Source: a bacterium
Lineage (GTDB): Bacteria; Latescibacterota; UBA2968; UBA8231
Length of the DNA: 34,986 nt
Direction of reading: 5' to 3'
NCBI GenBank assembly: GCA_027593305.1
Contig: JAQCJA010000001.1
Location: 1 to 34,986 of the forward strand
Positions 6,692-34,986 of the stretch are shown here, piece by piece. The position numbers were made by a program, and so were the translations under genes. The notes under the pieces are model-generated. The model did no database searches and was not told the origin of the DNA. It saw nothing but the letters and a program-made list of their open reading frames with translations. How positions within the stretch are numbered: the first letter of the stretch is position 1; each line of letters starts with the position of its first letter.

Positions 6692-6694
6692 CCC

Positions 6695-13233: not shown

Positions 13234-13288
13234 CCGGCACAAAGGCCTCTATGCCATACCATGTTGGCACACCACGCGGAGAGGGACC

Positions 13289-14402: not shown

Positions 14403-14750
14403 ATGTTACGTGTTTTGGGTCGAAGAACAGCAGAGGCCGCCGAAGTCCATGCAGGATTGGCAGATCTTGCCATGGCGTTCCTCGGGGCGGAAATTGACAA
14501 TCTGGGCTATATTCCTTTCACCCGTGATGTTTGCGCAGCGGCCAAGAGCCAGACTCCTTTCTTCCTGGCATTTCCGTCCTCCCCGGCGGCGGCGGCGTTC
14601 GCAGAGATTGCCACCCAGCTTACCGAGAGATCAGCACCCCTGCAACGGACTACTGAGAGCGCTTTTCTCCAGGGAACGTTACGTTCCCTGGCTGAGCAAT
14701 CGCCTCAAAATCGACGCGAGTCCCTCCAAGAGGCCTGGGCCATCCAATGA
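14403..14750 (+). pseudogene. flhG: C-terminal remnant of flhG/fleN (MinD/ParA-type flagellar number regulator)
   Basis: 115 codons from ATG 14403. The stretch LRVLGRRTAEAAEVHAGLADLAMAFLGAEIDNLGYIPFTRDVCAAAKSQTPFFLAFPSSPAAAAFAEIATQL follows the C-terminal third of FlhG/FleN (FL....L..G.IP.D..V..A...Q.P....P.S.AA.AF..IA). No deviant Walker A or Switch regions occur in any upstream frame. The stop overlaps the fliA ATG (ATGA), as in intact flhG-fliA operons. Confidence 0.55.
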
Positions 14751-15535: not shown

Positions 15536-15646
15536 AGATGCACCTTCGGGGGCCGGCGTCCGGGACGCCTGTGCCTGCTTTGTGAGAAGATCCATCCGCG
15601 TCGAGGATCCCGTCCTCTCTCCGCCTTACCAATATCGGACGCCAGC

Positions 15647-16612: not shown

Positions 16613-16616
16613 CCTC

Positions 16617-17348
16617 GTGGTGACCACTTCCAGTCCCGAACGGAATCCCGACCTGGGGGATGCCGGCGATCCAGGGGGGGATTCCTCGGGGCCGACAAGG
16701 GCACGTGAACTGCTGCAGCGGATCGCGGCCCTCGATGCGGATGCCGCATGGGAGCTTGGGTTGCACATCGATTCACTGACGGAATCCGAGAAGGAATTAC
16801 AGGTTCGCGTCAGTGCCCTTGAAGAGACGAACGGACAGTTGCAGGAACGCCTCACCAGCGGTCATCTCCAATACGCTCAGCTACGGGCGTCGATGGATGA
16901 AGTGCTCAATCTCCACGAACTGTCCGAAGCCATCAGCACCAGTTTTGACGTTGAGGATATCCTGGCGCAACTGATGAGCCTGTCTGCCAGGGTCGTCGCC
17001 TACGATGGCGCGGTCTTCTCCCTGGAAGGGGAGGGCGCCCGGCTTGAGCCGATCGCGCTGCGTGGTGCCGGGGAAATGCTGCAGGGGCGAGTGCGCATTC
17101 AGTGGGAGGACGGCATCGTCGACTGGGTTCTGCGCGAAGGGCGCCCCGTCGTCATCGATGATCTTGAGAGTTCGGAGGGCCATACATTCGTCTTTGTGCC
17201 CTTGCGGGTGGGGGGCAAGAAGATCGGCGTCTACGCTCTGCACTGCACCAAAGCCAAGGACGATTACAGAGTGAGATCGACATGCTCGGCGTGCTGGCCA
17301 ATCAGGCTGCGGCGGCGATGGAGACCTCCCGCCTCTACACCGATGTAG
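16617..17348 (+). CDS. sensor histidine kinase, N-terminal part (coiled coil + GAF), interrupted by a frame change near 17265-17280
   Basis: A GAF-like core (ILAQLMSLSARVV..VFSLEGEG..GIVDWVLREGRPVVIDDL..FVFVPLRVGGKKIGVYALHC) is followed by about 25 codons of Arg/Cys/Trp-rich out-of-frame-looking sequence (RVRSTCSACWPIRLRRRWRPP). Confidence 0.7.
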   Translation: MVTTSSPERNPDLGDAGDPGGDSSGPTRARELLQRIAALDADAAWELGLHIDSLTESEKELQVRVSALEETNGQLQERLTSGHLQYAQLRASMDEVLNLHELSEAISTSFDVEDILAQLMSLSARVVAYDGAVFSLEGEGARLEPIALRGAGEMLQGRVRIQWEDGIVDWVLREGRPVVIDDLESSEGHTFVFVPLRVGGKKIGVYALHCTKAKDDYRVRSTCSACWPIRLRRRWRPPASTPM

Positions 17349-18118
17349 AAACGGCCAACAGCCGTCTCAAGCAACAGCAACGGCAGTTGCTGCTTTCAGC
17401 CAAGCAGGCAGCGATCGGCGAACTCGCCGGCGGGGTTGCCCACGAAGTGAACAACCCGTTGCAGATCATTCTGAGTCGGGTGCAGCTCATGGTGGCCCAG
17501 CAAACGCGCTCGGGGGAAGACAACCCGAAGTTGATGGACGGGTTGGCCCTGATTGAAAACAACGTCAAGCGGATCTCCCGCATCATCCGTGCCCTGCTCG
17601 GTTTCGCCAGCCACAACACGATCGAGGCAGCGGGGCAGCCCTTTGGTGTCGCCACGGCCTTCCACCAGGCCTGCGCCCTGACGAAACACCAGTTGGATCA
17701 GCAGATGATCAGCATTGACATCTGCATGGAGGACGGCTTGCCCGACGTGTTCGGTAACGTGGGGGAACTCGAACAGGTGTTCATCAATCTGCTGCTGAAT
17801 GCCGAGAACGCCATGGCCGGTGGGGGTGGACACCTCGCTGTCACTGCCCGACGCGAGGGTGACTGGCTCGAGATTCGTTTCCAGGATGACGGTCCGGGAA
17901 TTCCTGCTGAACACATGGATCGAATATTCGAGCCCTTCTTCACGACTCGCGCCGACAAGGGTGGTACGGGGCTTGGCCTGGCGGTCAGTTATCGCATCAT
18001 TGAAAACCACGGCGGCACGATAACCGTCGAAAGTGAGACAGGCGAGGGGGCCTGTTTCATCCTTCGCTTGCCCGTCCCCGTAGTCGAGGCCGTTCCGCCC
18101 AGCCCGAGTGAGTCATGA
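17282..18118 (+). CDS. sensor histidine kinase, C-terminal part (end of GAF, HisKA, HATPase_c)
   Basis: It begins with the missing last GAF helix (MLGVLANQAAAAMETSRLY). It then has a coiled coil, H-box ELAGGVAHEVNNPLQII, N-box LLLNAENAM, G1 FQDDGPGIP and G2 GGTGLGLAVS. This frame is open from 17168 and sits at -1 relative to the upstream piece. Confidence 0.85.
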   Translation: MLGVLANQAAAAMETSRLYTDVETANSRLKQQQRQLLLSAKQAAIGELAGGVAHEVNNPLQIILSRVQLMVAQQTRSGEDNPKLMDGLALIENNVKRISRIIRALLGFASHNTIEAAGQPFGVATAFHQACALTKHQLDQQMISIDICMEDGLPDVFGNVGELEQVFINLLLNAENAMAGGGGHLAVTARREGDWLEIRFQDDGPGIPAEHMDRIFEPFFTTRADKGGTGLGLAVSYRIIENHGGTITVESETGEGACFILRLPVPVVEAVPPSPSES

Positions 18119-18693
18119 GCCCAACGATCGGCGCGAGTCTGCAGGTTGTGTTCGTCGATGCACTTTTCCTGTGCCTGGCGGCGGGCCTGGCATTCTGGTT
18201 CCGAGCCTGGCTCAAAGAGCAACAGAAGGGGATGGACCAACGCCTCGACGGCCTTGAAGAACAGCAGCAGGCGCTGGCCCGGATCTGCGATCGATTGACA
18301 AATGCCTGCAAGAGCCTGGAACGGCCGTCGCCGGCAGTCGATGCGATCACCCGTTCGGCCCCGCGCCCCGAGCCGGCACCTGCCCCGTCGCGCCCGTTCG
18401 CGTCAGGGACGCCGGCATCAGCGGCTGCAACAGGCGGGCAAGGACGGCCACCTGTGGCCGCCGATGGTGGTCCTGGTGCCGGAGTTCCGGTGGTTCGCCG
18501 TCGCGTCGATACCCCCCTCGCTCGCGCCGATCGTCAATGGGAGGAACTCACCGATCGCAGCCGCGAGGCGTACCGTCGAGCTCGAGATCTTCTCGAACAG
18601 GGAGTACCACCGAACGACATCGCGCGCCAGGTCGGTCTTGGTGTGGCGGAGGTCAATGTGCTGAAGCGGATGCGGGACGCCGGGCGGCGTTAA
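18115..18693 (+). CDS. membrane-anchored protein with C-terminal HTH-like module (DUF2802-like, flagellar-locus associated)
   Basis: 192 aa. Its ATG overlaps the kinase stop (ATGA). Layout: N-terminal TM (VVFVDALFLCLAAGLAFWF), coiled coil, Pro/Ala-rich spacer, then the C-terminal LLEQGVPPNDIARQVGLGVAEVNVLKRM. The DUF2802 assignment is from memory of that family's architecture and has not been searched. Confidence 0.6.
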   Translation: MSPTIGASLQVVFVDALFLCLAAGLAFWFRAWLKEQQKGMDQRLDGLEEQQQALARICDRLTNACKSLERPSPAVDAITRSAPRPEPAPAPSRPFASGTPASAAATGGQGRPPVAADGGPGAGVPVVRRRVDTPLARADRQWEELTDRSREAYRRARDLLEQGVPPNDIARQVGLGVAEVNVLKRMRDAGRR

Positions 18694-24548: not shown

Positions 24549-24659
24549 GTCGCTGTGTCCGGTCGAGTGGGGATGCGGTTACGTCATATCCGACAACAAC
24601 ATACGTGTCTTTTGTCCGCTTTCGTGACAGTCTATGCACGTGACCAAGAGGTGTCAAGC

Positions 24660-25058
24660 TTGATCGCCGGGAACGTGTCACGACCGTGGCCTGAGGCGCC
24701 GACCATCGGTGACGTCATACTGATCGTTGCAGCCCTTGCAGCGGCGGTGATGCTGGCTTTTGGCGGCACAAATGCGGCCGCGCCCCAGCGGGCCCTCGTC
24801 GATGTGGACGGCCAGATCCTGCACGACGTCGCCCTCGATGGTGAACAGACGCTTGTCGTTACCGGCCCTCTTGGCACAAGTGTGATCCTGATAAGGGATG
24901 GCCAGGCTCGAATTGCGTCGGCGCCTTGCTCCGGGCAGTTCTGCGTCGCCCGCGGATGGCTTCGCAAGAGCGGGGACATCGCCGCATGCGTGCCAAATCG
25001 GACGGTGCTGCGTCTGACGGGCGGCGCGCCCCGCATCCTCGACGGCGTCACCCGGTAA
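24660..25058 (+). CDS. NusG domain II-containing protein (DUF1312-like)
   Basis: TM anchor (VILIVAALAAAVMLAF), then LVDVDGQILHDVALDG..LVVTGPLGTSVILIRDGQARIASAPCSGQFCV..GDIAACVPNRTVLRL. The start is chosen at TTG 24660 because AAGAGG lies 8 nt upstream. The track start at 24555 and GTG 24675 are alternatives. Confidence 0.7.
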   Translation: MIAGNVSRPWPEAPTIGDVILIVAALAAAVMLAFGGTNAAAPQRALVDVDGQILHDVALDGEQTLVVTGPLGTSVILIRDGQARIASAPCSGQFCVARGWLRKSGDIAACVPNRTVLRLTGGAPRILDGVTR

Positions 25059-25066
25059 CCGTGCAG

Positions 25067-25579
25067 ATGCGGTACAGCCACAGGTTGACCCGCCTGGCAT
25101 TGCTCACTGCCATCGCACTGGTACTGTTTCTGGTGGAGGCGTCTCTGCCGCGACCATTGCCGTGGATGCGTCTGGGGTTGAGCAATGCAGCAGTACTGGC
25201 GGCGCTGTTGCTGTTCGGCGCAGGGCCGGCCGTGGCCGTCAGCCTCGCGAAACTCTCTCTCGGCGGGCTTCTGGGAGGCGGTCTGGCAGGTCCGGCCTTC
25301 GTCATCGGTGGATCGGCCAGCCTGGCAAGTGTTGTCACCATGGCTTTGCTGCACCGCCTGCTTCCCAGGGCCTTCAGTCCCGTTGGGCTGAGCGTCGCCG
25401 GGGCTCTGGCGCATCAGAGCACGCAACTGACGGTGGCTGCCATCTACCTGGGGCACATTGCATTGTTCGCTCTGCTGCCGGTATTTCTGATAAGCGGCGT
25501 GCTGACCGGACTGCTCACCGGGCTGATAACCTACTTTGCCCTGCAGCGCTTGGACAAAATTGACGGGCACGGCGCTTGA
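25067..25579 (+). CDS. Gx transporter family protein (Hpre_diP_synt_I-like membrane protein)
   Basis: Hydrophobic 170-aa protein (RLALLTAIALVLFLVEASLPRPLPWMRLGLSNAAVL.., GLSVAGALAHQSTQL). ATG 25067 (or GTG 25061) follows the NusG-II stop directly. This pairing is a commonly seen gene couple. Confidence 0.7.
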   Translation: MRYSHRLTRLALLTAIALVLFLVEASLPRPLPWMRLGLSNAAVLAALLLFGAGPAVAVSLAKLSLGGLLGGGLAGPAFVIGGSASLASVVTMALLHRLLPRAFSPVGLSVAGALAHQSTQLTVAAIYLGHIALFALLPVFLISGVLTGLLTGLITYFALQRLDKIDGHGA

Positions 25580-25789
25580 CCTGAAGCTGGATCGCACCTT
25601 TCCTTGAACGAGCATGCAGCAGTTTTCCGCGGTGACTTCCGTCGCCCGAGGCCACAGTTGCTTGAACAGACAGTATCTGGTCCAGATGTTCCTCCATCGA
25701 TGCGCCTGCTGGCGGTCCGTGCTGGTTTCCGATCGCGGGCGGGTGTCCATCGTTTGTTATTACACCGGCATGACTGAAAACTGAGTGTT

Positions 25790-28700
25790 ATGGAGTCGAT
25801 AGCAAACCCACCCGAAGGTCGTCACGCTGGTGTCACTGTGCGTGACGCACTCGCGCGTCTGTTTGTCATGGTGCTCGTGCTGACGGCAGCTTTGCCAGCC
25901 TCCGCCGAGGTCGATTACGAGGCCCTGCGGCAACTGGCACCGGAAGCACGACTGAAACAGACCGTTGGCTTCTTCTCCGGTCTCGGATCTCGAGTTGCCG
26001 GGTATCCCGGGGCAGAGCAGGCGGCCCTGCATGTGCACCGCCAGTTTCGTCACATCGACCTGCAGAACATCACTTTCCATAAGTATGATGTCTCCGTGCC
26101 CATCGACCACGGCGGCAATCTCAGCGTTGTCGGTGGCCCATCGGTACGTCTGCATGGCCTATGGCCCAATCTGGTACGGACGTCGACGTTGCCGGACGGT
26201 GGCATCGATGGTCGGTTGATCTGGGGCGGCAAGGGCGAGTTCGAGGATCTCGACGGCCAGCAGGTAGCTGGCAGTGTCGTCGTGCTCGACTTCAACTCAG
26301 GTGACAACTGGCTGAACACGGCCTACCTCGGTGCGTCCGCCGTTGTCTTCATCGAGCCCGATTCCACGGTATATCTCGAAGGTGAGAACAAATTCCTCAC
26401 CATGCCCCTCGACATGCCGAGGTTCTGGGTCAGCGAGAATGATGGTCGCGCACTTCGACGGGCGATCGACCGACGCAGTGGCACCGGCGACATCCAGGCG
26501 CACCTCGAATACCGCATGGACTGGGAGAGGAAGCCGGCATGGAACGTGATGGGGATGATCCCCGGCTACGATCCATTGCTCAAGGATGACGTCATTGTTC
26601 TGGAAGCCTACTATGACGCGATGTCCGTGGTGCCGTCCATTGCGCCTGGTGCCGAGCAGGCGGCTGGCATTACCGCACTGCTTGAGTTGGCACACTACTT
26701 CCGCGAACATCCACCGGCTCGATCGGTCCTGTTTCTGGCGACGTCGGCGCATCACCTCGCCCTGCGCGGCGTCGACGACTTCATCCAGCGGTACCTGCGC
26801 GATGAGGACCCCTTCATTGACCGCATGGTTGTGCGTCGGGTCGTCGAAGCGGCGCTGTCCCGGGGACTGATCGAAGTAGCCGCCGATGGCATCTCCTATC
26901 GCCTGGGCAACCAGATTTTCACCGGCAAGGAAGCGCTGGTTCGGCACGTGGCAGAGGACGACACGGTCCTCGTGCGCTCGATCATCGAATCATCCATTCG
27001 CGAAGGTGAAGGCCTCGTCAGCGAGACACCCGGTGCCTGGAGCGTGAGTTTTCGTGACGGCGCCCAGGTGAGCCAGAAGATGTTCGGCGATCGCGCCACC
27101 CTCGAGAAGGAACTCACTGACGACGAGGACCTGCGCCTCGGGTTCTATCGGGAGTGGGTGGATCCGAAAGTCGATTCTCTCAACATCAAGCTGTTCATCA
27201 GCCTTGATCTGTCGACCCAGACGGATGAGTTGGGTATCTGGAACAGCAATTCCAGCTTCTACTACAAGCGTTACTTTGCCCCCTTCGGCAAGAACTTCAT
27301 GGGCTATTCACGCCAGGTGAGCCGGGAGTTGGGCTACACCTTCGGTGACGTTCTCGTCAACGGCATCAGTCCCGAAGGTGGCAAGAGTTGGGAGACCTTT
27401 GTACCCGGCGAGATTTCCGTCAACAGCGAGTTGGTGCTGACGACAGGCACTCCGGCGCTGGCCTTTGTCACCGTCAACGACGCCAGGTTCCTCGTCGATA
27501 CGCCGCTGGATCGACCACAGAGTGTGCGCTACGACAACCTGGCTCGCCAGATTCGGGCTCTGGCGGGCATGTTCCACATGGCTTTCGAGGATCCTGAGTT
27601 GTTCCCTGACTTCAAGATGCGGCTCAAGGACACCCTGCGTTCGCTGAAAGCCAAGGCCATGGTTTTCCCCCGGCGCAGCATCGTGCCCGATCTGGCCAGG
27701 GCCGGTGCCGTCGGCGTCGTACGCAACGGCAAGAAGAAGTCCTACAAGGGTGTTCGCGGCGAGTACTTCGAGGTCGTAGATGGTGAGGGTGCATTCTATG
27801 TGAACCGCATCCGCGTCAACTCTGTCCAGGTGGAAGGCTACTACACCGACCCGGCAACCGGACACATCACTTACGCACCCGATCGTGGCATTCAGGGGGA
27901 CAAGTCCTACCCCATGAAGATCGCCATGGACTGGCGCGACAAGGAGTGGATGGTCGTCCTGTTTCCGTGTAAGGCATTCAACTTCTTTGACATCGTTGAT
28001 CCGCGATATCTGACAAAACTGTCGCAGGTATCCGTGTTTGATGAGACGAATACGGCCCCCGTGGAGTTCGGCTACACGATCGGTGAGGGGCCATCGGCTC
28101 AGGATGAGCCTGTCGGTGTGCTCTTCGCGCGCCCTGGTTCGCTGGTGAAAATGGGTTTTGGCGCGGGACTTCTTGGGTTTCGTTCGCTGCTGCTGAACGC
28201 GGACAATCCTGTTGACAAGGTCGAGGCCCTGGGCACGGGATATGCGATCGAGGACGAGACTTCCTTTGCCCGCACCTCCTATCTGGCGGCGCGCGACATG
28301 TGGACGCTGGATGAATCGCGGATGCGCGAGCTGGCAGGTTTCGCCATCAAGAACGAGCGTCTCAATGATCTTCATGGTAAGGCCAAGGGCGAGCTTGACT
28401 TGGGCGAGGCGGCATTCGCCGATAAGCAGTGGAGCCAGTTTGTGCGCCATACGCGAGCTGCCATCGGTCTCGAGTCCCGGGCCTATCCCGACGTCAAGGA
28501 CACCCAGAACGACGTCGTCCAGGGCATCATTTTCTTCATGGCTCTGGTCCTGCCCTGTGCCTATTTTGCCGAACGACTGTTGATCACGGCGGCGACGATT
28601 CAACGGCAGATCATGGGATTCGGCGGGATCTTCCTCGTCATCTGGGTGATCCTGTCCATCGTCCACCCGGCCTTCGAACTGTCGAACCCCTTTGTTATCC

Positions 28701-30655
28701 TGCTGGCATTCATCATTCTCGTGCTGGCGATTCTGGTGATGTGGATTATCGGGGGTCGTTTCAATGAACAGATGAAGAAGCTGCGCACGGAAGTGGCCGT
28801 GATCTACGATACGGACGTCAGCCGCTCCAGTGCCTCGATGACCGCGTTTCTGCTCGGCATTTCCAACATGAAACGCCGCAAGCTGCGGACTGTGCTGACG
28901 TTTTTTACCCTGCTGTTGCTGACTTTTACGGTGCTCTCCTTCACATCGATTCAGACATCGCTGCGCTTCAATCAGATCGAGCGGGACAATGAAGGCCTCT
29001 ATGAGGGGCTGCTCATACGCTCGAAGGCGTGGACGCCGCTGGAGGAATCGGTTCTGGAATACGCGCACAGCAATTTTGGTGACCGGGCATCCATCGCACC
29101 GCGCAGTTGGTACGACAACAAGAAAAAAGCGCACATCAAGATGAAGCACGGCCCGAACGCCCATAACGCACTGGGCGTTCTCGGTCTCACGCCGGAAGAG
29201 GCGGAGGTCACGGGCCTCGATCGGGCACTGATGGCGGGACGCTGGTTCCGTCCGGGCGAGGAAAAGGTCGTGATCCTGCCCAGCGAGATGATCGCTGCAG
29301 CAGCGCTCGACATCGACGCCGCCGACGTGGATCGCGGCGATGGCTCGGTGCAAATCCGGGTCTTCGGCGATGAGTTCACGGTGATTGGTGTCATCGACTC
29401 CAAACGGATGAAGGAGTTGAAGGACCTTGACGACGAGACCATGACACCTGCCGACTTTGCCGTCACGGGGGGACAGGCTGTACAGGAGATCGCCGAAGAG
29501 GAGCAGCGCGAGAAACAGGGACTGGAGGATTCTCAGGTGGTCATCAAGCCCTTCGTCCATCTGGAACCGGCCAACACCCTGCTCATGCCGTACCATTCGC
29601 TGCGCAAGGTCGGCAGTGGCAACCCGCTGCAGTCGGTCGGTGTTCGCTTCAACGAGGAAGTGGATGAACGTGCTGAGATCGAGACGTTCCTCTCCCGCCT
29701 GGCAGTTACCCTGTTCGCCGGAATTCAGGAGCGGGGCGACGATTACATCAAGGTGTCGATCTACAGTTCTCTCGGGATGACGTCCCTGTCGGGCATGGCC
29801 AATCTGTTCGTGCCGATCCTCATCGCCGCGCTTATCGTCCTGAATACGATGATGGGCTCCGTGTATGAGCGTTTCCGTGAAATCGGTGTCTACTCCTCCG
29901 TCGGCCTGGCACCCGGTCACATCGCCTGGCTGTTCATGGCCGAGTCGTGTGTTTACGCCGTCCTCGGGGTTGTCGCCGGCTATCTGGTTGGCCAGATCAT
30001 GGCCACGGTAATGACCAAGCTGGAGATCACCACGGGCTTCACGCTGAACTACTCGTCCCTCTCGGCGGTGCTCTCGTGTATCCTGGTGATGGCCGTCGTC
30101 ATGTTGTCCACCGTCTATCCGTCGCGCAAGGCGTCACAGATGGCGGTGCCCGACGTAACCCGTCGCTGGCGACTGCCGGTACCCGATGGCGACGATTGGC
30201 ATTTCGAGTTTCCCTTCACCGTCGGTGGTCGTGATGTTCTCGGCCTGAACGTGTTTCTCATGGGCTACTTCGACTCGTACAGCGAGGAGTCCATCGGTAC
30301 CTTCTACACCGATGGCGCCAAGCTGGGCACGATGGAGTCGGAATTTGGCGAGGGTTACACCATCGACATGAACATCTGGCTGGCTCCCTTCGATCTGGGG
30401 GTGAGTCAGCACGTTATCATTCGAGCCCTTCCTGAGGCGGAGCACAACATCTTCCAGATTCAACTCGACATCAAGAGACTCAGCGGCGAAGACGCCTCCT
30501 GGCGACGGGTCAACCAGAGATTCATGAATGTCATTCGTAAGCAGTTCCTCATCTGGCGCACCGTCGATGCAGACGCGAAGGAGATCTATCGCGAGCAGGC
30601 GGCGGCGCTACTGTCCGGGGAACAGCAAACCGTCTCTTCGGCAGGGGTGAGCTGA
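25790..30655 (+). CDS. giant envelope protein: signal peptide, PA + M28-fold (degenerate) ectodomain, 3 TM, FtsX/MacB-type permease module, cytoplasmic tail
   Basis: 1621 aa. Signal peptide LFVMVLVLTAALPASA. PA-like GRLIWGGKGEFEDLDGQQVAGSVVVLDF..AYLGASAVVFIEPD. M28-like NVMGMIPG..DVIVLEAYYDA..GAEQAAGITALLELAHYF..VLFLATSAHHLALRG. FtsX TM1 MKRRKLRTVLTFFTLLLLTFTVLSF, a periplasmic domain, then SVYERFREIGVYSSVGLAPGHIAWLFMAESCVYAVLGVVAGY. Confidence 0.9.
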   Translation: MESIANPPEGRHAGVTVRDALARLFVMVLVLTAALPASAEVDYEALRQLAPEARLKQTVGFFSGLGSRVAGYPGAEQAALHVHRQFRHIDLQNITFHKYDVSVPIDHGGNLSVVGGPSVRLHGLWPNLVRTSTLPDGGIDGRLIWGGKGEFEDLDGQQVAGSVVVLDFNSGDNWLNTAYLGASAVVFIEPDSTVYLEGENKFLTMPLDMPRFWVSENDGRALRRAIDRRSGTGDIQAHLEYRMDWERKPAWNVMGMIPGYDPLLKDDVIVLEAYYDAMSVVPSIAPGAEQAAGITALLELAHYFREHPPARSVLFLATSAHHLALRGVDDFIQRYLRDEDPFIDRMVVRRVVEAALSRGLIEVAADGISYRLGNQIFTGKEALVRHVAEDDTVLVRSIIESSIREGEGLVSETPGAWSVSFRDGAQVSQKMFGDRATLEKELTDDEDLRLGFYREWVDPKVDSLNIKLFISLDLSTQTDELGIWNSNSSFYYKRYFAPFGKNFMGYSRQVSRELGYTFGDVLVNGISPEGGKSWETFVPGEISVNSELVLTTGTPALAFVTVNDARFLVDTPLDRPQSVRYDNLARQIRALAGMFHMAFEDPELFPDFKMRLKDTLRSLKAKAMVFPRRSIVPDLARAGAVGVVRNGKKKSYKGVRGEYFEVVDGEGAFYVNRIRVNSVQVEGYYTDPATGHITYAPDRGIQGDKSYPMKIAMDWRDKEWMVVLFPCKAFNFFDIVDPRYLTKLSQVSVFDETNTAPVEFGYTIGEGPSAQDEPVGVLFARPGSLVKMGFGAGLLGFRSLLLNADNPVDKVEALGTGYAIEDETSFARTSYLAARDMWTLDESRMRELAGFAIKNERLNDLHGKAKGELDLGEAAFADKQWSQFVRHTRAAIGLESRAYPDVKDTQNDVVQGIIFFMALVLPCAYFAERLLITAATIQRQIMGFGGIFLVIWVILSIVHPAFELSNPFVILLAFIILVLAILVMWIIGGRFNEQMKKLRTEVAVIYDTDVSRSSASMTAFLLGISNMKRRKLRTVLTFFTLLLLTFTVLSFTSIQTSLRFNQIERDNEGLYEGLLIRSKAWTPLEESVLEYAHSNFGDRASIAPRSWYDNKKKAHIKMKHGPNAHNALGVLGLTPEEAEVTGLDRALMAGRWFRPGEEKVVILPSEMIAAAALDIDAADVDRGDGSVQIRVFGDEFTVIGVIDSKRMKELKDLDDETMTPADFAVTGGQAVQEIAEEEQREKQGLEDSQVVIKPFVHLEPANTLLMPYHSLRKVGSGNPLQSVGVRFNEEVDERAEIETFLSRLAVTLFAGIQERGDDYIKVSIYSSLGMTSLSGMANLFVPILIAALIVLNTMMGSVYERFREIGVYSSVGLAPGHIAWLFMAESCVYAVLGVVAGYLVGQIMATVMTKLEITTGFTLNYSSLSAVLSCILVMAVVMLSTVYPSRKASQMAVPDVTRRWRLPVPDGDDWHFEFPFTVGGRDVLGLNVFLMGYFDSYSEESIGTFYTDGAKLGTMESEFGEGYTIDMNIWLAPFDLGVSQHVIIRALPEAEHNIFQIQLDIKRLSGEDASWRRVNQRFMNVIRKQFLIWRTVDADAKEIYREQAAALLSGEQQTVSSAGVS
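25937..27590 (+). other. PA domain + M28-peptidase-like fold within the giant protein (approx. residues 50-600)
   Basis: Motif alignment by eye against the M28 consensus (see findings). A roughly 110-aa insert sits between the two M28 half-motifs. The second half reads LFISLDLS .. TGTPALAFVTVNDARFLVDTPLD. Confidence 0.55.
28850..30130 (+). other. FtsX/MacB-type four-TM permease module with periplasmic domain (approx. residues 1020-1447)
   Basis: TM1, a soluble loop of about 290 aa (ALMAGRWFRPGEEKVVILPSEM..VFGDEFTVIGVIDS), then TM2-4 with the conserved ER.REIG......G motif. Three extra TM helices (28514-28757) precede it, which gives a consistent in/out topology. Confidence 0.75.
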
Positions 30656-30658
30656 GCC

Positions 30659-33184
30659 ATGGCGAAGCGCAACGCCAATCAGGAAATCGAGGAATATCGT
30701 GACCTGATCGCGACGCCGACTGAGTTTGAAGACGGCTTCACGAGCAAGGCCATCATCGGTGTGCTGTTCGTCGCCTTTATCATGATTCCGGGGAACATGT
30801 ACCTCGGTCTCATGGTGGGTGGCTCGTTAGGGGCTGCAGCGGAGTGGGTGACCATCATCCTCTTTGCCGAGATCACCAAGCGGTCCTTCACATCCCTGTC
30901 CAAGCAGGAAGTCTACGTTCTCTACTACGTCGCAGCAGGTCTCATCGCCGCCGAAACGGGGGCTTTTGACGGTCTGCTGTGGAACCAGTATCTGGTACAG
31001 TCGCCGCCGGCGCAGCAGTTCGGTATCGCCAATCTGATACCCACCTGGTGGGCGCCGGCCATCGATTCGCCTGCCCTGTTGCAGCGCACCTTCCTGCACC
31101 GGGACTGGATCGTTCCCATCGGTCTTCTGTTGGCGAATTTCGTGATCTCGCGCGTGTCGTGGTTCACGATGGCTTACGTGCTGTTTCGGGTCAATTCCGA
31201 CTACGAGCGCCTGCCCTTTCCCTTTGCCCCGGTTGCGGCGCAGGGCGCCACGGCCCTGGCGGAGACGACTCAGGGCGTGGAATCCTGGCGTTGGCGGGTG
31301 TTTTCCGCCGGGGCTATGATCGGCATGGTTTTCGGTGTGCTCTATGTTGCGATTCCGGCCATCTCCGGGGCGCTGCTCACCGAGCCGATCCAGCTGATTC
31401 CCATCCCCTTCGTCGACTTCACACAAATAACAGGGAACTTCATCCCCGCCACGCCCCTGGGCTTTACGGCTCATCTTGGACCGATATTTGCAGGACTCGT
31501 GATGCCCTTCTGGGGCGTCATGGGCACCTTCATCGGCGTCGTCGCCCACTCCATCGCCAACCCGATCCTGTACGATCTGGGGTACCTGCAGATCTGGCAG
31601 CCGGGCATGGGAGCGATCGAGACATTCTTCGTCAACTCCGTCGACTTCTGGATGAGTTTCGGCATCGGCACGACAGCGGCGATCGCCATCATCGGCATCT
31701 ATCAGGTGGTGCAGGGGGTTCGTGGTGCTGCCGTGCACAAAGCATCTGGCGGCACCGGGCGCAGTTGGGAAGTGCCGCCCGGCCGCGGTGATTTTTCCAT
31801 CTGGGTGGCGTTGGGCCTCTATTGTGTGGCGTCGGCGGGGTTGATCTTCATCGCCTGGCTCTACCTGCCCGCCTTCTCTCAGTTCATCGGTTTCTTCCTG
31901 TTCTTCGCCCTCGTCTTCACGCCCTTCCAATCTTTCGTCAACGCCCGTCTCGTGGGCATGGTCGGGCAATCGATTTCGATCCCCTACGTCCGCGAAGCGA
32001 CGATCATTCTGTCCGGGTATCAGGGCGTCGATATCTGGTTCATGCCGTTCCCTCTTGGCAACTATGGCGCCCAGACGCAGAAATTTCGCGAGATTGAGCT
32101 TACGGGGACGAAGTTTACCAGCATCATCAAGGCCGAAGTCTGCATGGTGCCTGTCGTGTTGCTCGCGACATTCCTGTACTCATCCTACATCTGGAAGCTG
32201 GCGCCCATCCCGTCCGCCTCGTATCCCTTTGCACAGGTCATGTGGCGGCTTCGGGCTCTGCAGACGTGTATCTGGTTCACGGGCACGCTGAAGAGCGAAC
32301 TGCAGGTGGCGCCGGATCGTGCAGAAGCCACCTGGATTCCAGCGAATCTCGTCGAAGGGGACTGGTGGTACTGGCGCGTCCGCGCCGCTGACAGTGAGTG
32401 GGTGGAGTCCGGTGGTGCCAAGGGCGTCGCCGGCCCATGGTCGTCGACCGAGGCGTTCTATACCCATTTTGACGCCAGTGCACCGCAGAACGTGTCGCCC
32501 ATGCCTCCAGGTGCCCTGATGGGGGCTGACGTTTCCTCTGCCATCAATGGCCAGAAGAGCCCTTTCCCGGTCGAGGAGAATCGCGGGGCGCAAATTCATG
32601 TTCGTGGTCTCGGACCGGAAATGAGGGTCCTTCCCGGTGCTGCCGATCTGATCCGCGATGCCGTAGCTGACACCAGCCTGATCCGCGCCCTTGTTGCCGG
32701 GGCAGAGCCAGAAGTAGGCATTGCAGCCACACCGCGACCCGCACTCCGCGCCACCTCTGAGGCGGGCCTGCCCGAGGGCTGGGTCCACTATTTTGTCGTC
32801 GATACGGATCCGAATTTCTCCAGTCCATGGATTCAGCGATCGACGGATGAGCCGTGGCTGTTCCGTGCCATCAAGCCAAACATCATCGCCGCGGGAACCG
32901 TGATTGGCCTCGGCAGTTACATCCTGCTATCGGTCCTGGGGCTGCCGGTCTTGCTCGTGTTCGGGTATATCCGGTCTCTGACGGCGTTGCCGCACTGGAT
33001 GGTGACTGAGGTTATCGGGGCCATGCTCGCGCGCTACTACTTCAACAAGAAGTACGGAACCAAGCAGTGGCGTACCTATGCTCCGGTCCTGGCCGTGGGT
33101 TTCGCCTGCGGAATGGCGTTGATGGGAATGGCGTCCATCTCCATCGCGCTGATCCAGAAGTCCGTTTCCGTCCTCATCTTCTGA
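30659..33184 (+). CDS. polytopic membrane protein, possibly OPT-superfamily-like transporter, with ~190-aa soluble insert
   Basis: 841 aa, starting 3 nt after the giant gene. N-terminus FTSKAIIGVLFVAFIMIPGNMYLGLMVGGSLGAAAEWVTIILFAEITKR resembles OPT N-termini, but this is a weak call by eye. It has many TM helices. The soluble insert lies at about 32290-32865 and carries WWYWRVRAAD..GPWSS and HYFVVDTDPNFSSPW. Confidence 0.8.
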   Translation: MAKRNANQEIEEYRDLIATPTEFEDGFTSKAIIGVLFVAFIMIPGNMYLGLMVGGSLGAAAEWVTIILFAEITKRSFTSLSKQEVYVLYYVAAGLIAAETGAFDGLLWNQYLVQSPPAQQFGIANLIPTWWAPAIDSPALLQRTFLHRDWIVPIGLLLANFVISRVSWFTMAYVLFRVNSDYERLPFPFAPVAAQGATALAETTQGVESWRWRVFSAGAMIGMVFGVLYVAIPAISGALLTEPIQLIPIPFVDFTQITGNFIPATPLGFTAHLGPIFAGLVMPFWGVMGTFIGVVAHSIANPILYDLGYLQIWQPGMGAIETFFVNSVDFWMSFGIGTTAAIAIIGIYQVVQGVRGAAVHKASGGTGRSWEVPPGRGDFSIWVALGLYCVASAGLIFIAWLYLPAFSQFIGFFLFFALVFTPFQSFVNARLVGMVGQSISIPYVREATIILSGYQGVDIWFMPFPLGNYGAQTQKFREIELTGTKFTSIIKAEVCMVPVVLLATFLYSSYIWKLAPIPSASYPFAQVMWRLRALQTCIWFTGTLKSELQVAPDRAEATWIPANLVEGDWWYWRVRAADSEWVESGGAKGVAGPWSSTEAFYTHFDASAPQNVSPMPPGALMGADVSSAINGQKSPFPVEENRGAQIHVRGLGPEMRVLPGAADLIRDAVADTSLIRALVAGAEPEVGIAATPRPALRATSEAGLPEGWVHYFVVDTDPNFSSPWIQRSTDEPWLFRAIKPNIIAAGTVIGLGSYILLSVLGLPVLLVFGYIRSLTALPHWMVTEVIGAMLARYYFNKKYGTKQWRTYAPVLAVGFACGMALMGMASISIALIQKSVSVLIF

Positions 33185-33225
33185 CCAACGCGACCCGCTT
33201 CCATTCAATCCGACATCCTCCTGGT

Positions 33226-33253
33226 CCGGCCCGGTGCTGTTGCGCCGGGCCGG
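33226..33253 (+). other. GC-rich hairpin in the 90-nt spacer (attenuator, stabiliser or weak terminator)
   Basis: CCGGCCCGG-tgctgttgcg-CCGGGCCGG: a perfect 9-bp stem with a 10-nt loop and no U-tract. Confidence 0.3.
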
Positions 33254-33274
33254 CAGGATACCGTCTGTCTACCT

Positions 33275-34324
33275 ATGAATGATGCCCATCACGACTTCAG
33301 CTGGCAGGGGATCCGCCTGCGCGTCCCGGCCGAATGGGAATTGGGGCGCGTGGACGGCGATGCCAAATCCGGTTATGCCAGACTCGATGATGCACGTATG
33401 GTGCGCGCTGAAGTCGAGTGGCGCGCCGCGCCCGTCCGTGGCGCACGTCGACCTGTGTCGGATCTGGTGGATCGATACATCGAGCAACTGCAGAAGAAGG
33501 CAGACAAGTCGGGCATGGAGTTCTCGGTGCAGCGCCAGGCCCGGTTTCTGCGGGACAAGCGCTGGCTCGAGGGCAGTGAGTACGAGACTTTCATATGGGA
33601 AGCCGACTACCGCGCCTACAACCTCGCCCGTGCCTGTCCTGAGTGTCACCGCATCGTGCTCATGAGAGTGCTGGCACCGGTCGGCGAGAACGCCGAGGCT
33701 CTGGTCAATGAAGTGTTGCCGAGTCTGGAGGATCACCCGCGAGAGGCCGACGGGGGGCGCAACCTCTGGAGCGTGTATGGTATGCGCTTTCTGGCGCCCG
33801 TCGACTTTGAGTTGACCGAGTACGAGCTGAAGTCGGGGCATATACGGTTGACTTTCCAGAAGGACGGCGGCAATCGGACCCTGCGCATTCACCGCTTGAG
33901 TATGGCGCAGATGCTGTTGCGCGATCACGATCTGGAAGACTGGTACCCGTCCTTCTTCCGCAAGGACCTGCGGGACTTCCTCTTCACCGTGCACCCGGCC
34001 CGGATCAGCAACCACGCAGGGGTCCTCGTTCAGGGCGGACCAAGAAGCCGGTGGCGACAGATCCTGCGGCCCTTGCCCATGGTCAATCCACGCCCGCGGC
34101 GCTATCTGCAAGGCGCCGCCTGGCACTGCCCCGAACAGAATCGCATTTGTGTCGTTGAGCATCTCTCCAAGAAGCGACCGGAGGGAGAGGACGACTTCCT
34201 CAAGGAACTGATCGACGGATATGTTTGCCACACGGAACAAGCCACGTCTGACGCGCGACTCGATGATGAACTCGCGACCGGCCCGCAACGAGCTGCTGCA
34301 CTGGGAGAAGACGGAGACCGGTGA
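33275..34324 (+). CDS. hypothetical soluble protein made of two homologous halves, each with a CPEx[HN]RI motif
   Basis: 349 aa with an ATG start. Half 1: WQGIRLRVPAEWELGRVDGDAKSGYARL ... ACPECHRIVLMRV. Half 2: VYGMRFLAPVDFELTEYELKSGHIRL ... WHCPEQNRICVVEH. It is co-oriented with its neighbours. The 355-aa mirror ORF on the minus strand is rejected. Confidence 0.65.
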   Translation: MNDAHHDFSWQGIRLRVPAEWELGRVDGDAKSGYARLDDARMVRAEVEWRAAPVRGARRPVSDLVDRYIEQLQKKADKSGMEFSVQRQARFLRDKRWLEGSEYETFIWEADYRAYNLARACPECHRIVLMRVLAPVGENAEALVNEVLPSLEDHPREADGGRNLWSVYGMRFLAPVDFELTEYELKSGHIRLTFQKDGGNRTLRIHRLSMAQMLLRDHDLEDWYPSFFRKDLRDFLFTVHPARISNHAGVLVQGGPRSRWRQILRPLPMVNPRPRRYLQGAAWHCPEQNRICVVEHLSKKRPEGEDDFLKELIDGYVCHTEQATSDARLDDELATGPQRAAALGEDGDR

Positions 34325-34652
34325 AGCGCAGATCAAGGTGACGCGCCAGGAGACCTGGAAGACGCGTCTGCTGTCGAAGATCTTCTACATCCCGGAAACG
34401 CGGACCATCACGCTTGACGAGGTGGGAACCGAAGTATGGCTGATGTGTGATGGCCATACTTCCGTCGCCTCGATGATCGAGCGCTTGCGACAGCGCTACA
34501 AGCTTGATCGCAAGGAAGCCGAAGTGTCCCTGTTGTCATATCTCAAGACACTGGGGCAGAAGAGTTTCGTCGGATTTCTCATCGACGGTCAGAAGTCGGG
34601 CAAGCCGGGGGGTGGAGCAAAGGAGGCGTCCGGCAAGAAATGGAAGAGATGA
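34263..34652 (+). CDS. PqqD-family (RRE-fold) protein with Lys-rich tail
   Basis: The core LDEVGTEVWLMCDGHTSVASMIERLRQRYKLDRKEAEVSLLSYLKTLGQKSFVGFL matches the PqqD pattern (L.e.g..iW.l.DG..tv.ei...l...y.....a..dv..fl..L). The start is uncertain (ATG at 34221, 34263 or 34266; GTG at 34338). With 34263 it overlaps the upstream gene by 62 nt. Confidence 0.75.
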   Translation: MMNSRPARNELLHWEKTETGEAQIKVTRQETWKTRLLSKIFYIPETRTITLDEVGTEVWLMCDGHTSVASMIERLRQRYKLDRKEAEVSLLSYLKTLGQKSFVGFLIDGQKSGKPGGGAKEASGKKWKR

Positions 34653-34675: not shown

Positions 34676-34711
34676 GAAGGCCGGGAATCCTGCGTATGAT
34701 TCCCGGCCTTC
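34676..34711. terminator. bidirectional hairpin terminator between the PqqD-like gene and flagellin
   Basis: GAAGGCCGGGAATC-ctgcgtat-GATTCCCGGCCTTC: a perfect 14-bp stem between convergent genes. A weaker 9-bp imperfect hairpin (34722-34747) lies next to the flagellin stop. U-tracts are poor on both sides. Confidence 0.6.
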
Positions 34712-34755: not shown

Positions 34756-34986
34756 CTACTGCAGGAGCGACAGCGCCGTTTGTGGCACAACGTTCGCCTG
34801 GGCGAGCATTGCTGTGGAGGCCTGTGACAACACCTGCGCTCGAGTGAACTTCGAGACTTCGTAGGCGATGTCGGCGTCGCTGATCGAGGCTTCCGAGTTC
34901 TGGATGTTCTCGATCGAGTTCTCCGTGAAGGAGATGGTAAAGGCGAGGCGGTTCATCCAGGCACCGAGATCACCTCGTTGACCGGA
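34756..34986 (-). CDS. fliC: flagellin, C-terminal part (gene continues past the right edge)
   Basis: The frame is open to position 34986 and reads SGQRGDLGAWMNRLAFTISFTENSIENIQNSEASISDADIAYEVSKFTRAQVLSQASTAMLAQANVVPQTALSLLQ. This matches the conserved flagellin C-terminal D0/D1 helix (LGA.QNRL....NL...EN...A.SRI.DAD.A.E......QIL.Q...AMLAQAN..PQ..L.LL). Confidence 0.85.
   Translation of the reverse strand, partial: SGQRGDLGAWMNRLAFTISFTENSIENIQNSEASISDADIAYEVSKFTRAQVLSQASTAMLAQANVVPQTALSLLQ

Follow-up and report, generated by a model that had tools for sequence, protein, structure and literature searches.

A predicted giant FtsX-type permease and a predicted OPT-fold transporter encoded side by side in many bacteria and some archaea

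Four closely packed genes on a latescibacterotal contig raise the question of whether they make up a membrane system of their own and, if so, what such a system may do. They lie in the window, by which we mean the whole stretch of 34,986 nucleotides analyzed here (assembly GCA_027593305.1, contig JAQCJA010000001.1). The initial annotation described them as a four-gene module that fits no described pathway. The four same-strand open reading frames are indeed present, and no search places them in a characterized pathway. However, the four genes are the wrong unit. According to sequence comparisons, the locus is one lineage's version of a much older set of membrane genes that occurs in many bacteria and also in some archaea, with a conserved core consisting of the first two genes (g1 and g2), usually together with a DUF6785/DUF6784 paralogue. 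The features discussed below are listed here by nucleotide positions in the window or by residues of the encoded protein.

24555..25058, plus strand: NusG_II-domain (EetA-like) membrane protein (Pfam PF07009, E 7.5e-22)
25067..25579, plus strand: EetB-like PF07456 protein ('Gx transporter' family, ECF-type substrate-binding subunit; Pfam E 9e-35)
25790-30655, plus strand: g1, open reading frame of 1621 aa, predicted giant permease
g1 aa 1-39: signal peptide or anchor
g1 aa 40-905: PA + M28-like ectodomain plus a conserved region of no assigned family
25925..27589, plus strand: PA + M28-fold region of g1 (profile against PDB), with a non-canonical active site
g1 aa 909-987: three extra TM helices
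28895..30142, plus strand (g1 aa 1036-1451): MacB/FtsX module, with TM1, putative periplasmic core domain and TM2-4
30143..30652, plus strand (g1 aa 1452-1621): cytoplasmic C-terminal tail, about 170 aa
30659-33184, plus strand: g2, open reading frame of 841 aa, predicted OPT-fold polytopic transporter
32285-32875, plus strand (g2 aa 543-739): beta-rich insert of about 190 aa, lineage-variable
33226-33234 / 33245-33253, plus strand: GC hairpin in the g2-g3 spacer, 9-bp stem, 10-nt loop, without a T run
33275-34324, plus strand: g3, open reading frame of 349 aa, tandem PsbP/Mog1/DUF1795-like protein
g3 aa 322-349: disordered C-terminal tail
34263-34652 (longer open reading frame start at 34221), plus strand: g4, 129 aa, PqqD/RRE-fold protein
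34676..34711, no strand assigned: 14-bp hairpin separating g4 from the convergent flagellin gene
34756..34986, minus strand: 3' end of a flagellin gene (34759-34986 encode its final 76 residues), context outside the module

Most of the fine structure proposed earlier was recovered. Only 3 nt separate g1 from g2, the spacer of 90 nt between g2 and g3 (1-171 nt among relatives) holds a perfect GC stem, and g3 and g4 overlap by 62 nt when g4 starts at 34263, the start used by NCBI and by a public gene call. The NCBI version of g1 has 1605 aa and starts at 25838. The perfect 14-bp hairpin 3' of the unit (34676-34689 / 34698-34711) is likely to be a bidirectional terminator. The convergent gene beyond it does encode flagellin: it is 85.5% identical over 76 aa (tblastn) to the flagellin downstream of the module in a relative (L015), which has Flagellin_N/C domains.

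The gene arrangement is far beyond chance and is seen again in dozens of genomes, so that the neighborhood conservation expected of a real module is there. Of 81 related loci, 70 have g1 immediately 5' of g2, while in a further four nothing but the DUF6785/6784 gene separates the two. The DUF6785/DUF6784 paralogue, absent from this window, accompanies g1 and g2 in 46 of 82 loci. Some genomes carry at least two paralogous systems, and the g1-g2 linkage holds for such copies too. It is also present in MAGs labelled Latescibacterota, Armatimonadota, Zipacnadia and Planctomycetota, a taxonomic breadth that carries binning uncertainty because the labels come from MAGs. Five distant contexts (at 26-31% identity to g2; one is labelled Thermoprotei and one adjoins a reverse gyrase gene) all contain the trio of an M28+FtsX giant, an OPT-like protein and a DUF6785/6784-like protein, in variable order. 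In many genomes the module adjoins relA and is a conserved chromosomal feature.

By sequence, g1 appears to be an ABC permease of type VII (the MacB/FtsX class) whose extracytoplasmic PA/M28-fold domain is very large. The M28 and FtsX calls made earlier for this protein were upheld by Pfam matches to both families: FtsX (PF02687) at 58.8 bits (cutoff 25.5, E 7.1e-16, aa 1340-1451) and, partially, M28 (PF04389) at 31 bits (cutoff 21.3, E 2.6e-7, model positions 1-78 of 193). The MacB_PCD model (PF12704) gave 19 bits, below its 27-bit cutoff. MacB (5LIL) aligned with aa 1264-1451 (E 4.8e-11), and the topology of g1, together with this alignment from aa 1264, is compatible with a core domain between TM1 and TM2. 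The TM2-TM3 loop V-Y-E-R-F-R-E-I-G...G-L-A-P (ER..EIG....GLAP) is invariant among 21 diverse homologues (columns E1360, R1361, E1364, I1365 and G1372-P1375). Going by MacB structures, this loop is presumably the coupling helix that docks the ATPase.

The g1 protein resembles MacB, LolCDE and FtsEX in its predicted order of TM1, a putative extracytoplasmic core domain and TM2-4, in the ER..EIG coupling-loop motif and in the LolD/MacB-type ATPase gene that adjoins its homologue in some relatives. Unlike them, it has an extra N-terminal ectodomain of ~870 aa, three additional TM helices and the cytoplasmic tail, and neither an ATPase nor a membrane-fusion protein or outer-membrane partner is encoded beside it. 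In addition, g1 has an OPT-fold transporter as its constant genomic partner, something that no type VII system is known to have. The ADOP duplicated orphan permeases (TIGR03434) are likewise FtsX-type permeases without an adjacent ATPase; however, they have two FtsX modules per chain, whereas g1 has one MacB/FtsX module and the three extra helices, and g1 scores 29 bits against a TIGR03434 cutoff of 622. We rejected g1 as a duplicated permease because its first TM bundle has no homology to the FtsX bundle (hhalign probability 0.2%).

The ATPase-driven mechanism of the initial annotation meets a difficulty here, since the 35-kb window encodes no ABC ATPase. A LolD/MacB-type ATPase is found near the module in only 12 of 85 related loci; in five Zipacnadia/Armatimonadota loci a LolD/MacB/FtsE-type ATPase lies directly 5' of g1. 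For these reasons the energization of g1 is an assumption.

The second gene was thought to encode an OPT-like N-terminus. The resemblance goes further and covers the whole length: according to its AF2 model (pLDDT 85), g2 is a complete OPT-fold transporter. The best Foldseek match, barley YS1 (7WST/7WSR, E 1.5e-8), provides the sole significant PDB matches of the model, over ~560 columns with a TM-score (target) of 0.54-0.56. The g2 sequence itself has no family match in Pfam or NCBIfam, with nothing in Pfam at E <= 1 and the OPT model (PF03169) not reached; relatives at 26-31% identity do match the whole of PF03169, the lowest E being 7e-15. The g2 family comprises 964 sequence clusters at 50% identity. 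Its insert is probably cytoplasmic by positive-inside analysis; in some relatives the insert takes the form of a PDZ or propeller domain. Homology between the DUF6785/6784 protein and g2 (hhalign probability 98%, E 1.4e-13, 587 columns) suggests that DUF6785 and DUF6784 are distant OPT-fold paralogues of g2. While g2 shares the YS1 fold with the OPT family (PF03169, TC 2.A.67), it differs in its insert and in a sequence that falls below the Pfam model. Moreover, known OPT members are solo proton-coupled importers, whereas g2 has a giant ABC permease encoded beside it and, in many cases, a further and strongly diverged paralogue (DUF6785/DUF6784).

The other two genes appear from their distribution to be accessories, confined to a single Latescibacterota clade and one Planctomycetota MAG. 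The g3-g4 pair lies 3' of the module in 27 loci, overlapping by 26-62 nt, and in a Tepidisphaeraceae MAG it lies 3' of g1-g2-DUF6785. Our search found g3 in about 140 sequence clusters only, with source labels mostly Latescibacterota. The g3 sequence has no Pfam, NCBIfam or PDB match, and neither a signal peptide nor a TM segment is predicted in it. Its AF2 model (pLDDT 86.7) shows a repeated fold of two domains, each half being a PsbP/Mog1/DUF1795 alpha/beta sandwich (Foldseek E 1e-5 to 1e-3). The matches are PsbP (E 1.6e-5, TM-score (target) 0.53-0.66), TplEi, SciW and DcrB, the last two at ~E 1e-3. The earlier proposal of two homologous halves thus gains more support than was claimed for it, from the repeated fold and from an hhalign E of 6.8e-4 between the halves. 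The two CPEx[HN]RI motifs are aligned in register; however, their cysteines are not conserved. Compared with other proteins of this fold (PsbP, DcrB, the T6SS Eag chaperone SciW, TplEi), g3 is distinguished by tandem duplication, a cytoplasmic location and the lack of a sequence-family match.

The PqqD-like nature of g4 is clear from PF05402 (48.1 bits, cutoff 23.4, E 1.5e-12), and NCBI names it 'PqqD family protein'. In NCBIfam it resembles lasso-peptide and PQQ chaperones, with all equivalog scores below their cutoffs. No radical-SAM enzyme, cyclase, protease maturase, precursor peptide or conserved small ORF was seen near it in the window. Thus g4 shares PF05402 with PqqD and RiPP recognition elements, but no maturase or precursor peptide gene lies near it, its N-terminus is extended by ~55 aa, its tail is rich in Lys and Gly, and its translation is coupled to that of a tandem PsbP-like protein. 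By analogy of fold, both g3 and g4 may bind peptides or protein segments.

What could these parts do together? From their composition, folds and linkage, we tentatively infer that the locus encodes a multi-subunit, ATP-driven, receptor-assisted transport complex of the cytoplasmic membrane, probably for peptide uptake; we would put this at somewhat less than an even chance. In such a complex, g1 would be energized by a LolD/MacB-type ATPase from elsewhere in the genome. Its ectodomain, probably non-catalytic, would be the receptor capturing a peptide-like substrate outside the cell, and ATP-driven mechanotransmission would hand the substrate to the OPT-fold channel (g2) for import. In most other genomes a second OPT-like subunit (DUF6785/DUF6784) would be added. 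On the cytoplasmic face, at the g1 tail and the predicted g2 insert, g3 and g4 would serve as cargo-handling or regulatory adaptors, and the EetA/EetB-like genes would be co-transcribed upstream. Uptake is favored because, to our knowledge, all characterized OPT members are importers. In addition, the two or more paralogous systems of some genomes point to nutrient-type behavior. The uptake model has to face the fact that characterized MacB-class machines work the other way, exporting or extracting their substrates. The miss of g2 against the Pfam OPT model also counts against it.

The opposite direction must therefore be considered. In an export or extraction machine, g1 would expel or extract an envelope-directed molecule (a peptide, a lipoprotein or a lipid-linked molecule), the OPT-like subunits would move it across the membrane, and g3 (Eag-chaperone-like) and g4 (RRE-like) would hold the cargo in the cytoplasm beforehand. 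In favor of this, characterized type VII ABC systems such as MacAB, LolCDE and FtsEX act outward; against it, no OPT member is known to act as an exporter. The match of g3 to Eag/SciW chaperones, which hold effector TM segments, and to DcrB would suit a cargo holder. The same applies to the PqqD/RRE fold of g4, since RREs bind precursor peptides in RiPP pathways, and both proteins are cytoplasmic and translationally coupled. However, the operon lacks a precursor peptide gene, a modifying enzyme and any conserved small ORF, and most lineages carrying the core have neither g3 nor g4. Multiple paralogues per genome also suit nutrient uptake better than housekeeping export, and we consider export unlikely.

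The active site of the ectodomain bears on the receptor role that the uptake model gives to it. A profile of g1 homologues matches aminopeptidase 2EK8 (E 1.6e-18) and YwaD (3e-16) in the PDB, and also transferrin receptor, nicalin and nicastrin, the nearest non-enzymatic relatives. In a residue alignment to AAP, g1 has one of the six members of the M28 catalytic set (five zinc ligands and Glu151), namely D473, which retains AAP D179. At the other positions, Y274 is found at H97, E289/Q290 at D116/D117 (with D117 aligned to a gap or to Q290), H321-H322 at E151-E152, so that H321 takes the position of the general base Glu151, and A565 at H256, next to the invariant R566. The Glu-Glu pair is not kept in any g1 homologue examined, archaeal-labelled ones included. 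The ectodomain is thus probably inactive. The initial annotation emphasized an extracellular hydrolase under an FtsEX-like switch; with five of the six catalytic residues gone, the M28-like domain should not be read as a hydrolase. We favor a receptor because of these replacements and the non-enzymatic relatives. Like transferrin receptor, nicalin and nicastrin, g1 combines the PA + M28 fold with degenerate metal ligands in a domain outside the membrane that is attached to a polytopic membrane complex or belongs to one. Unlike theirs, this domain is prokaryotic, shares a single chain with an ABC-type permease and keeps its own conserved set of residues (Y/H274, D276, E289, H321, D473 and R566).

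Some catalysis by the ectodomain may nevertheless be envisaged, given this residue constellation and a precedent: the best PDB match, 2ANP, is an engineered aminopeptidase mutant with His at the E151 position, where His supports residual activity. FtsEX systems activate extracellular hydrolases. Analogously, FtsX movements might switch on the fused M28 peptidase, which would trim envelope or extracellular peptides, with g2 importing the products. In favor of such a switch, g1 unites an M28 fold and an FtsX module in one chain, and conserved polar residues, including the His at the general-base position, still occupy the former metal site. In one locus (L087) an M14 peptidase gene lies directly 5' of the trio and an M55 gene ~8.5 kb downstream. 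However, the equivalents of H97, D117, E152 and H256 are replaced in g1, the Glu-Glu pair is missing from every homologue examined, and the M28-fold family includes well-known non-enzymes, all of which make this switch quite improbable.

A more far-reaching reading is that g1 and g2 (with DUF6785/6784 where it is present) form an obligate supercomplex, in which a type VII ABC mechanotransmitter would be physically coupled to OPT-fold subunits, with a peptidase-derived receptor and an adaptor-recruiting platform. This is a possibility that we regard as doubtful. If true, it would represent a hybrid primary/secondary transporter architecture, ancient and common to Bacteria and Archaea, in which the receptor ectodomain is combined with a cytoplasmic platform (the g1 tail and the g2 insert) recruiting lineage-specific adaptors such as g3 and g4. 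Our database and literature searches found no function, partner or paper attached to the g2 family, DUF6785 or DUF6784. The present analysis offers a testable hypothesis for these three families together, all of them consistently encoded with a giant FtsX-type permease. Should the parts make up a single machine, the MacB/FtsX mechanotransmission class would for the first time be linked to a secondary-transporter fold and, if the receptor reading is also true, a peptidase fold would once more have been recruited as a receptor. The system may bear on organic-substrate acquisition by Latescibacterota, Armatimonadota, Planctomycetota and some thermophilic archaea.

The genes upstream of g1 add another facet. 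The minus-strand ORF of 372 aa (24632-25750), formerly taken as a divergent upstream gene, is spurious and masks the NusG_II and PF07456 genes, which lie opposite to it and on the strand of g1. The real start of the EetA-like gene may be a few codons 3' of 24555; the ORF 24926-25579 is over-extended for the EetB-like gene, and Met 25067 is its inferred start. In all close relatives this pair lies immediately 5' of g1 and on its strand; in some of them the spacing suggests a single operon. The operon therefore probably extends beyond the four genes assigned to it before, beginning two genes ahead of g1 with the EetA-like and then the EetB-like gene. These genes point to flavin trafficking, which the uptake model does not explain. 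PF07456 has been equated with EetB, described as the S-component of a FAD exporter, that is, its ECF-S subunit (bioRxiv 10.1101/2022.11.04.515267). The locus could accordingly be imagined as an extracytosolic flavin trafficking or redox module, in which EetA/EetB deliver flavin outside and g1/g2 use or move it. However, no ApbE gene is seen in the window, and the [ST]GA[ST] flavinylation motif is present in none of the six proteins. No other core-carrying clade examined has the EetA/EetB pair, whose link to the module may be lineage-specific synteny only. We consider a flavin role very unlikely.

Finally, the g1 tail is strongly conserved, with about 20 invariant residues among 18-21 diverse homologues, and by itself it has no PDB, Pfam or PADLOC match. 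A nucleotide-sensing or defense effector of the 'CARF_m8 - LolE TM' group, with the tail as a divergent CARF-like sensor, is very improbable: the PADLOC model PDLC01991 'CARF_m8--CARF_LolE_TM' does match g1 (E 1.8e-54) in a full-length alignment reaching into the tail, to aa 1590, but what it covers is the TM bundle, putative periplasmic core domain and FtsX helices, the predicted strand/helix order of the tail as read from its sequence is not Rossmann-like, g2, g3, g4 and DUF6785 have no PADLOC match, no cas, cyclase or other defense genes occur in the window, and the module is in many genomes the conserved chromosomal neighbor of relA. The PADLOC model name suggests that there are relatives with a different ectodomain, 'Beta-galactosidase', an observation that we have counted toward nutrient-type behavior.

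The four open reading frames of the proposed envelope module were recovered at the coordinates of the initial annotation, and so were their tight spacing, the hairpins and the convergent flagellin gene. The features of the region are as follows:

24555-25058, + strand: gene with a NusG_II domain (E 7.5e-22)
about 25067-25579, + strand: PF07456 gene (E 9e-35)
25790-30655, + strand: g1, giant permease gene (1621 aa)
30659-33184, + strand: g2, gene of an OPT-like transporter (841 aa)
33226-33234 / 33245-33253: perfect 9-bp GC stem within the 90-nt g2-g3 spacer
33275-34324, + strand: g3, tandem PsbP/Eag-like gene (349 aa)
34221 or 34263 to 34652, + strand: g4, PqqD-like gene (34263 is the start in the public gene call and at NCBI)
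34676-34711: perfect 14-bp hairpin between g4 and the convergent flagellin 3′ end

The g1-g2 spacing is 3 nt. With the 34263 start, g4 overlaps g3 by 62 nt, as had been proposed, and across 27 loci this overlap ranges from 26 to 62 nt. The flagellin 3′ end following the hairpin covers 76 residues, which share 85.5% identity with a flagellin encoded after the module in a relative. The NCBI product names are 'FtsX-like permease family protein', two times 'hypothetical protein' and 'PqqD family protein'. Among the closest relatives of the window, the labels are Latescibacterota or Gemmatimonadetes/Gemmatimonadota.

All close relatives also have the NusG_II and PF07456 genes ahead of g1 in the same orientation, and the intergenic distances are often no more than tens of bases. 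Therefore, the operon probably comprises six genes here, beginning with the first gene after a divergent PMT_2 gene. The NusG_II protein is presumably EetA. In a Listeria preprint, PF07456 corresponds to EetB, the subunit that binds the substrate in an ECF-type FAD exporter, and eetB and eetA are co-localised in 3,328 genomes (bioRxiv 10.1101/2022.11.04.515267). A divergent 372-aa ORF directly upstream of g1 (24632-25750, - strand) has no family match and was rejected as spurious: it starts with ATG, runs antisense to the genes of the NusG_II and PF07456 proteins, and illustrates well that DNA of 62% GC can contain long spurious ORFs. No flavinylation motif that would mark a flavinylation target was found. 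The 210-nt and 90-nt gaps, whose lengths vary among relatives, contain no convincing ORF for a small precursor peptide, and an Rfam scan of the window matched no riboswitch or other known RNA.

Gene-neighbourhood conservation was examined by a scan with one genome per species, which gave 80 loci; the six window proteins were mapped by tblastn and all ORFs were clustered. The g1 gene lies immediately 5′ of g2 in 70 of 81 loci, and in four more a single gene separates them. This gene, c7, encodes a protein of about 660 aa with DUF6785 and DUF6784 and is a distant homologue of g2 (hhalign probability 98%, E 1.4e-13, 587 columns). Of 82 loci, 46 contain it, arranged as c7-g1-g2, g1-c7-g2 or g1-g2-c7; it is absent from the window. 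Some chromosomes carry more than one paralogous g1-g2 copy (for example, OZ244235.1 and OY282352.1), and the pair is also found in MAGs labelled Armatimonadota, Zipacnadia, Planctomycetota and Abditibacteriales. For the most distant g2 relatives, five contigs found by an alignment-based search were looked up. All five carry the trio in variable order: a DUF6785/6784-like protein, an M28+FtsX giant of 1458-1554 aa and an OPT-like protein of 632-650 aa. One is labelled Thermoprotei, and one has the trio beside the gene of a reverse gyrase. This distribution marks the module as old and widespread.

Synteny of g3 and g4 is much narrower. Together with the EetA/EetB pair, they are found only in the orthologous clade (g2 identity of at least 60%), with two partial exceptions: a Tepidisphaeraceae MAG, in which g3-like and PqqD genes come after g1-g2-c7, and a Zipacnadia locus with a weak g3-like match only. 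Thus the tight and deeply conserved linkage is that of g1-g2(-c7), and g3, g4, EetA and EetB are accessories; the four-gene unit of the initial annotation is the elaboration of one lineage. In the Tepidisphaeraceae locus (L074, 4800-9900) the g1 homologue is split into several short ORFs, which could be due to frameshifts, a pseudogene or poor assembly; its g2, DUF6785/6784, g3-like and PqqD genes are intact. Another locus (L009, 475-5507) has two tandem g2 homologues followed by g3 and g4, with the g1 tail found only at the very start of the contig. The tandem copies may be a local duplication or a misassembly.

By hydropathy, g1 starts with a signal sequence, which is followed by an ectodomain ending near aa 905, a bundle of three TM helices (909-987) and a basic loop on the cytoplasmic side. 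A fourth TM helix (1036-1054) leads into another outside domain, after which come three more TM helices (1333-1442) and a C-terminal tail of 177 aa. A PA + M28 architecture is seen in the N-terminal 600 residues of the ectodomain. Searched against the PDB, a profile built from g1 homologues retrieves the PA-containing aminopeptidases 2EK8 (E 1.6e-18) and YwaD, and next transferrin receptor, nicalin and nicastrin. The fold recognised earlier is thus upheld. In a residue alignment with Aeromonas aminopeptidase, H97 corresponds to Y274, D117 to a gap or Q290, E151-E152 to H321-H322 and H256 to A565; D179 is retained as D473. The first His is retained in archaeal-labelled and some planctomycete-labelled homologues, and none of the homologues examined keeps the Glu-Glu pair or the last His. 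With catalytic positions substituted in g1 and its homologues, an active M28 peptidase is unlikely, and g1 was not filed as one for this reason. The family has an alternative conserved set (D276, E289, H321, D473 and R566), and altered catalysis is possible. We read the ectodomain as a peptidase fold that has probably become a binding domain. In the PDB, the closest sequence match to its M28-like core (26477-26824, aa 230-345) is 2ANP, an engineered E151H variant of the Aeromonas enzyme, because g1 naturally carries His at this position. In the orthologous clade, the M28-like domain is interrupted by about 120 aa (26800-27190, aa 338-465), inserted after the site of the former Glu-Glu pair and before that of D179. 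Here the Zipacnadia/Armatimonadota clade carries a different insertion, which is longer and coiled; the other clades have no insertion.

The last four TM helices of g1 and the domain enclosed by them form a predicted MacB/FtsX module. The C-terminal module matches FtsX (E 7e-16) and aligns with the structures of MacB, LolC, YtrF and LolF, in agreement with the FtsX-type permease noticed initially; the MacB_PCD score is under the model cutoff. A duplicated, ADOP-like FtsX permease was rejected, since hhalign gives a probability of 0.2% between the first TM bundle and the FtsX bundle; g1 scores 29 bits against TIGR03434 (ADOP), which has a cutoff of 622. The TM2-TM3 loop (VYERFREIG...GLAP) does not vary among 21 homologues of 32-79% identity. 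We take this loop to be the ATPase-docking helix of the MacB structures, so g1 very probably still requires an ATPase. Judging from sequence, g1 is filed as a divergent type VII ABC permease.

A PADLOC model, PDLC01991 'CARF_m8--CARF_LolE_TM', matches g1 with E 1.8e-54, and a second one, with 'Beta-galactosidase' in its name, matches the FtsX helices. In fragment scans the PDLC01991 match is made up of the three extra TM helices, the periplasmic core domain and the FtsX helices, which shows g1 to belong to a wider predicted group of FtsX-type permeases with 7-8 TM helices and exchangeable outer domains. A defence/CARF reading is very unlikely: the TM core accounts for the score, which therefore does not demonstrate a CARF domain, and nothing else in the window points to defence. 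The tail (aa 1452-1621), with about 20 residues invariant across the family, has by itself no match in the PDB, Pfam or PADLOC.

The g2 sequence has no match in Pfam, NCBIfam or the PDB. A word-indexed search found more than 3,900 relatives; the best 120 of these are 64-100% identical, and all named proteins among them are called 'hypothetical protein'. An exhaustive search of 50%-identity representatives gave 964 g2-family clusters at E <= 0.001. Typical members have 615-700 aa and align with residues 20-545 and a C-terminal stretch, so they lack the middle region of g2. Several distant members score above the Pfam OPT cutoff, with matches that span the whole model. An AF2 model built from near and distant homologues (pLDDT 85) has barley YS1, of the OPT family, as its only significant PDB match (E 1.5e-8, TM-score 0.54-0.56 on the target). 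Both lines of evidence bear out the OPT-like nature first suggested for the N-terminus of g2, whose modelled fold is that of OPT proteins, yet outside the Pfam family. The beta-rich insert (aa 543-739) varies by lineage: at its site, one relative (P0242, 1083 aa) has a PDZ domain and another (P0241, 921 aa) a two-component-regulator propeller repeat. This site is therefore a hotspot for gaining binding domains. Lys+Arg counts per successive loop in 64 aligned g2 sequences alternate consistently and, by the positive-inside rule, the insert is predicted to be cytoplasmic.

About 140 relatives of g3 were found, with mostly Latescibacterota source labels. Its two homologous halves had been proposed together with CPEx[HN]RI motifs. 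The duplication was upheld by hhalign between the half-alignments (E 6.8e-4 over 131 columns, motifs in register), although BLASTP finds no significant similarity between the halves, and by an AF2 model (pLDDT 86.7) with two similar alpha/beta halves. The cysteines of both motifs are not conserved and, since they are substituted in many homologues, zinc binding by the CPEC motifs was dismissed. Both halves match PsbP, the T6SS Eag chaperone SciW, DcrB and TplEi. A PDB sequence search gave no match; by its modelled structure only, g3 is a PsbP/DUF1795-fold protein, with neither a signal peptide nor a TM segment predicted. The g4 protein passes the PqqD model, consistent with its NCBI name and its earlier description, and misses all NCBIfam equivalog cutoffs. 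It is a protein with the PqqD fold that stands in no RiPP context.

The 35-kb window contains no ABC ATPase gene, and in just 12 of 85 loci is there such a gene within 10 kb. Where present, these ATPases are of the LolD/MacB/FtsE type; in five Zipacnadia/Armatimonadota loci the gene is immediately 5′ of g1. Thus an ATPase is probable but usually encoded elsewhere, as is the case for 'orphan' FtsX permeases. Three Latescibacterota loci without g1 (L047, 5411-14808; L049; L053) combine a LolD-type ATPase and an FG-GAP/ASPIC-UnbV/TPR protein (903 aa) with g2 and c7. Apparently, the OPT-like pair can associate with a different outer protein. The 551 aa called for the ABC protein in L047 were not accepted, as the N-terminal 330 aa are an artefact of an over-extended low-complexity ORF.

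With the anatomy of the module, the g2 and g3 folds and the degenerate M28 site established, a mechanism may be proposed. The products of g1, g2 and partner genes would form one complex, in which an ATP-driven g1 would offer its ectodomain as a receptor, a peptide-like substrate would be imported through the OPT-fold subunits, and g3 and g4 would act at the cytoplasmic face. Export is a serious rival: every type VII ABC system characterised so far is known to work outward, and both g3 and g4 look like cargo chaperones. We favour import over export for the following reasons. First, characterised OPT members are importers. Second, the systems are paralogous within genomes. Third, the outer domain seems to be exchangeable. 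Finally, some distant loci sit among peptidase and polysaccharide-lyase genes. In one of them (L087, 516-2060 and 11013-19953) the trio is flanked by M14 carboxypeptidase, amidohydrolase and M55 peptidase genes and by two genes of the heparinase II/III-like type, of which one also encodes a C-terminal ulvan-lyase domain; its context is polymer degradation.

All parts of the module can be placed in, or likened to, known superfamilies; three of the families lack annotation. The literature searched contained nothing relevant on DUF6785/DUF6784, FtsX with OPT, M28 with FtsX and OPT, or CARF with LolE. As the initial annotation had stated, the combination matches no pathway described in the literature and databases searched. 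The module may constitute a new hybrid transporter architecture, a reading that we consider less likely than not but a genuine possibility.

Elsewhere in the window, a run of genes on one strand (14747-18693, +) encodes a FliA-type sigma factor, HDOD, GAF, a HisKA/HATPase kinase and DUF2802. This run and the flagellin at the window end suggest that the module lies in a motility-rich region. On the opposite strand, relA and an aminotransferase gene lie 3′ of the run, as they do in relatives. Finally, an 834-aa ORF (8492-10996, +) inside a glycosyltransferase / O-antigen-ligase-TPR cluster (5732-14266) shows an unusual fusion: its N-terminal domain is a sulfatase (E 1.7e-37), and its C-terminal part is a VanZ-like membrane domain.
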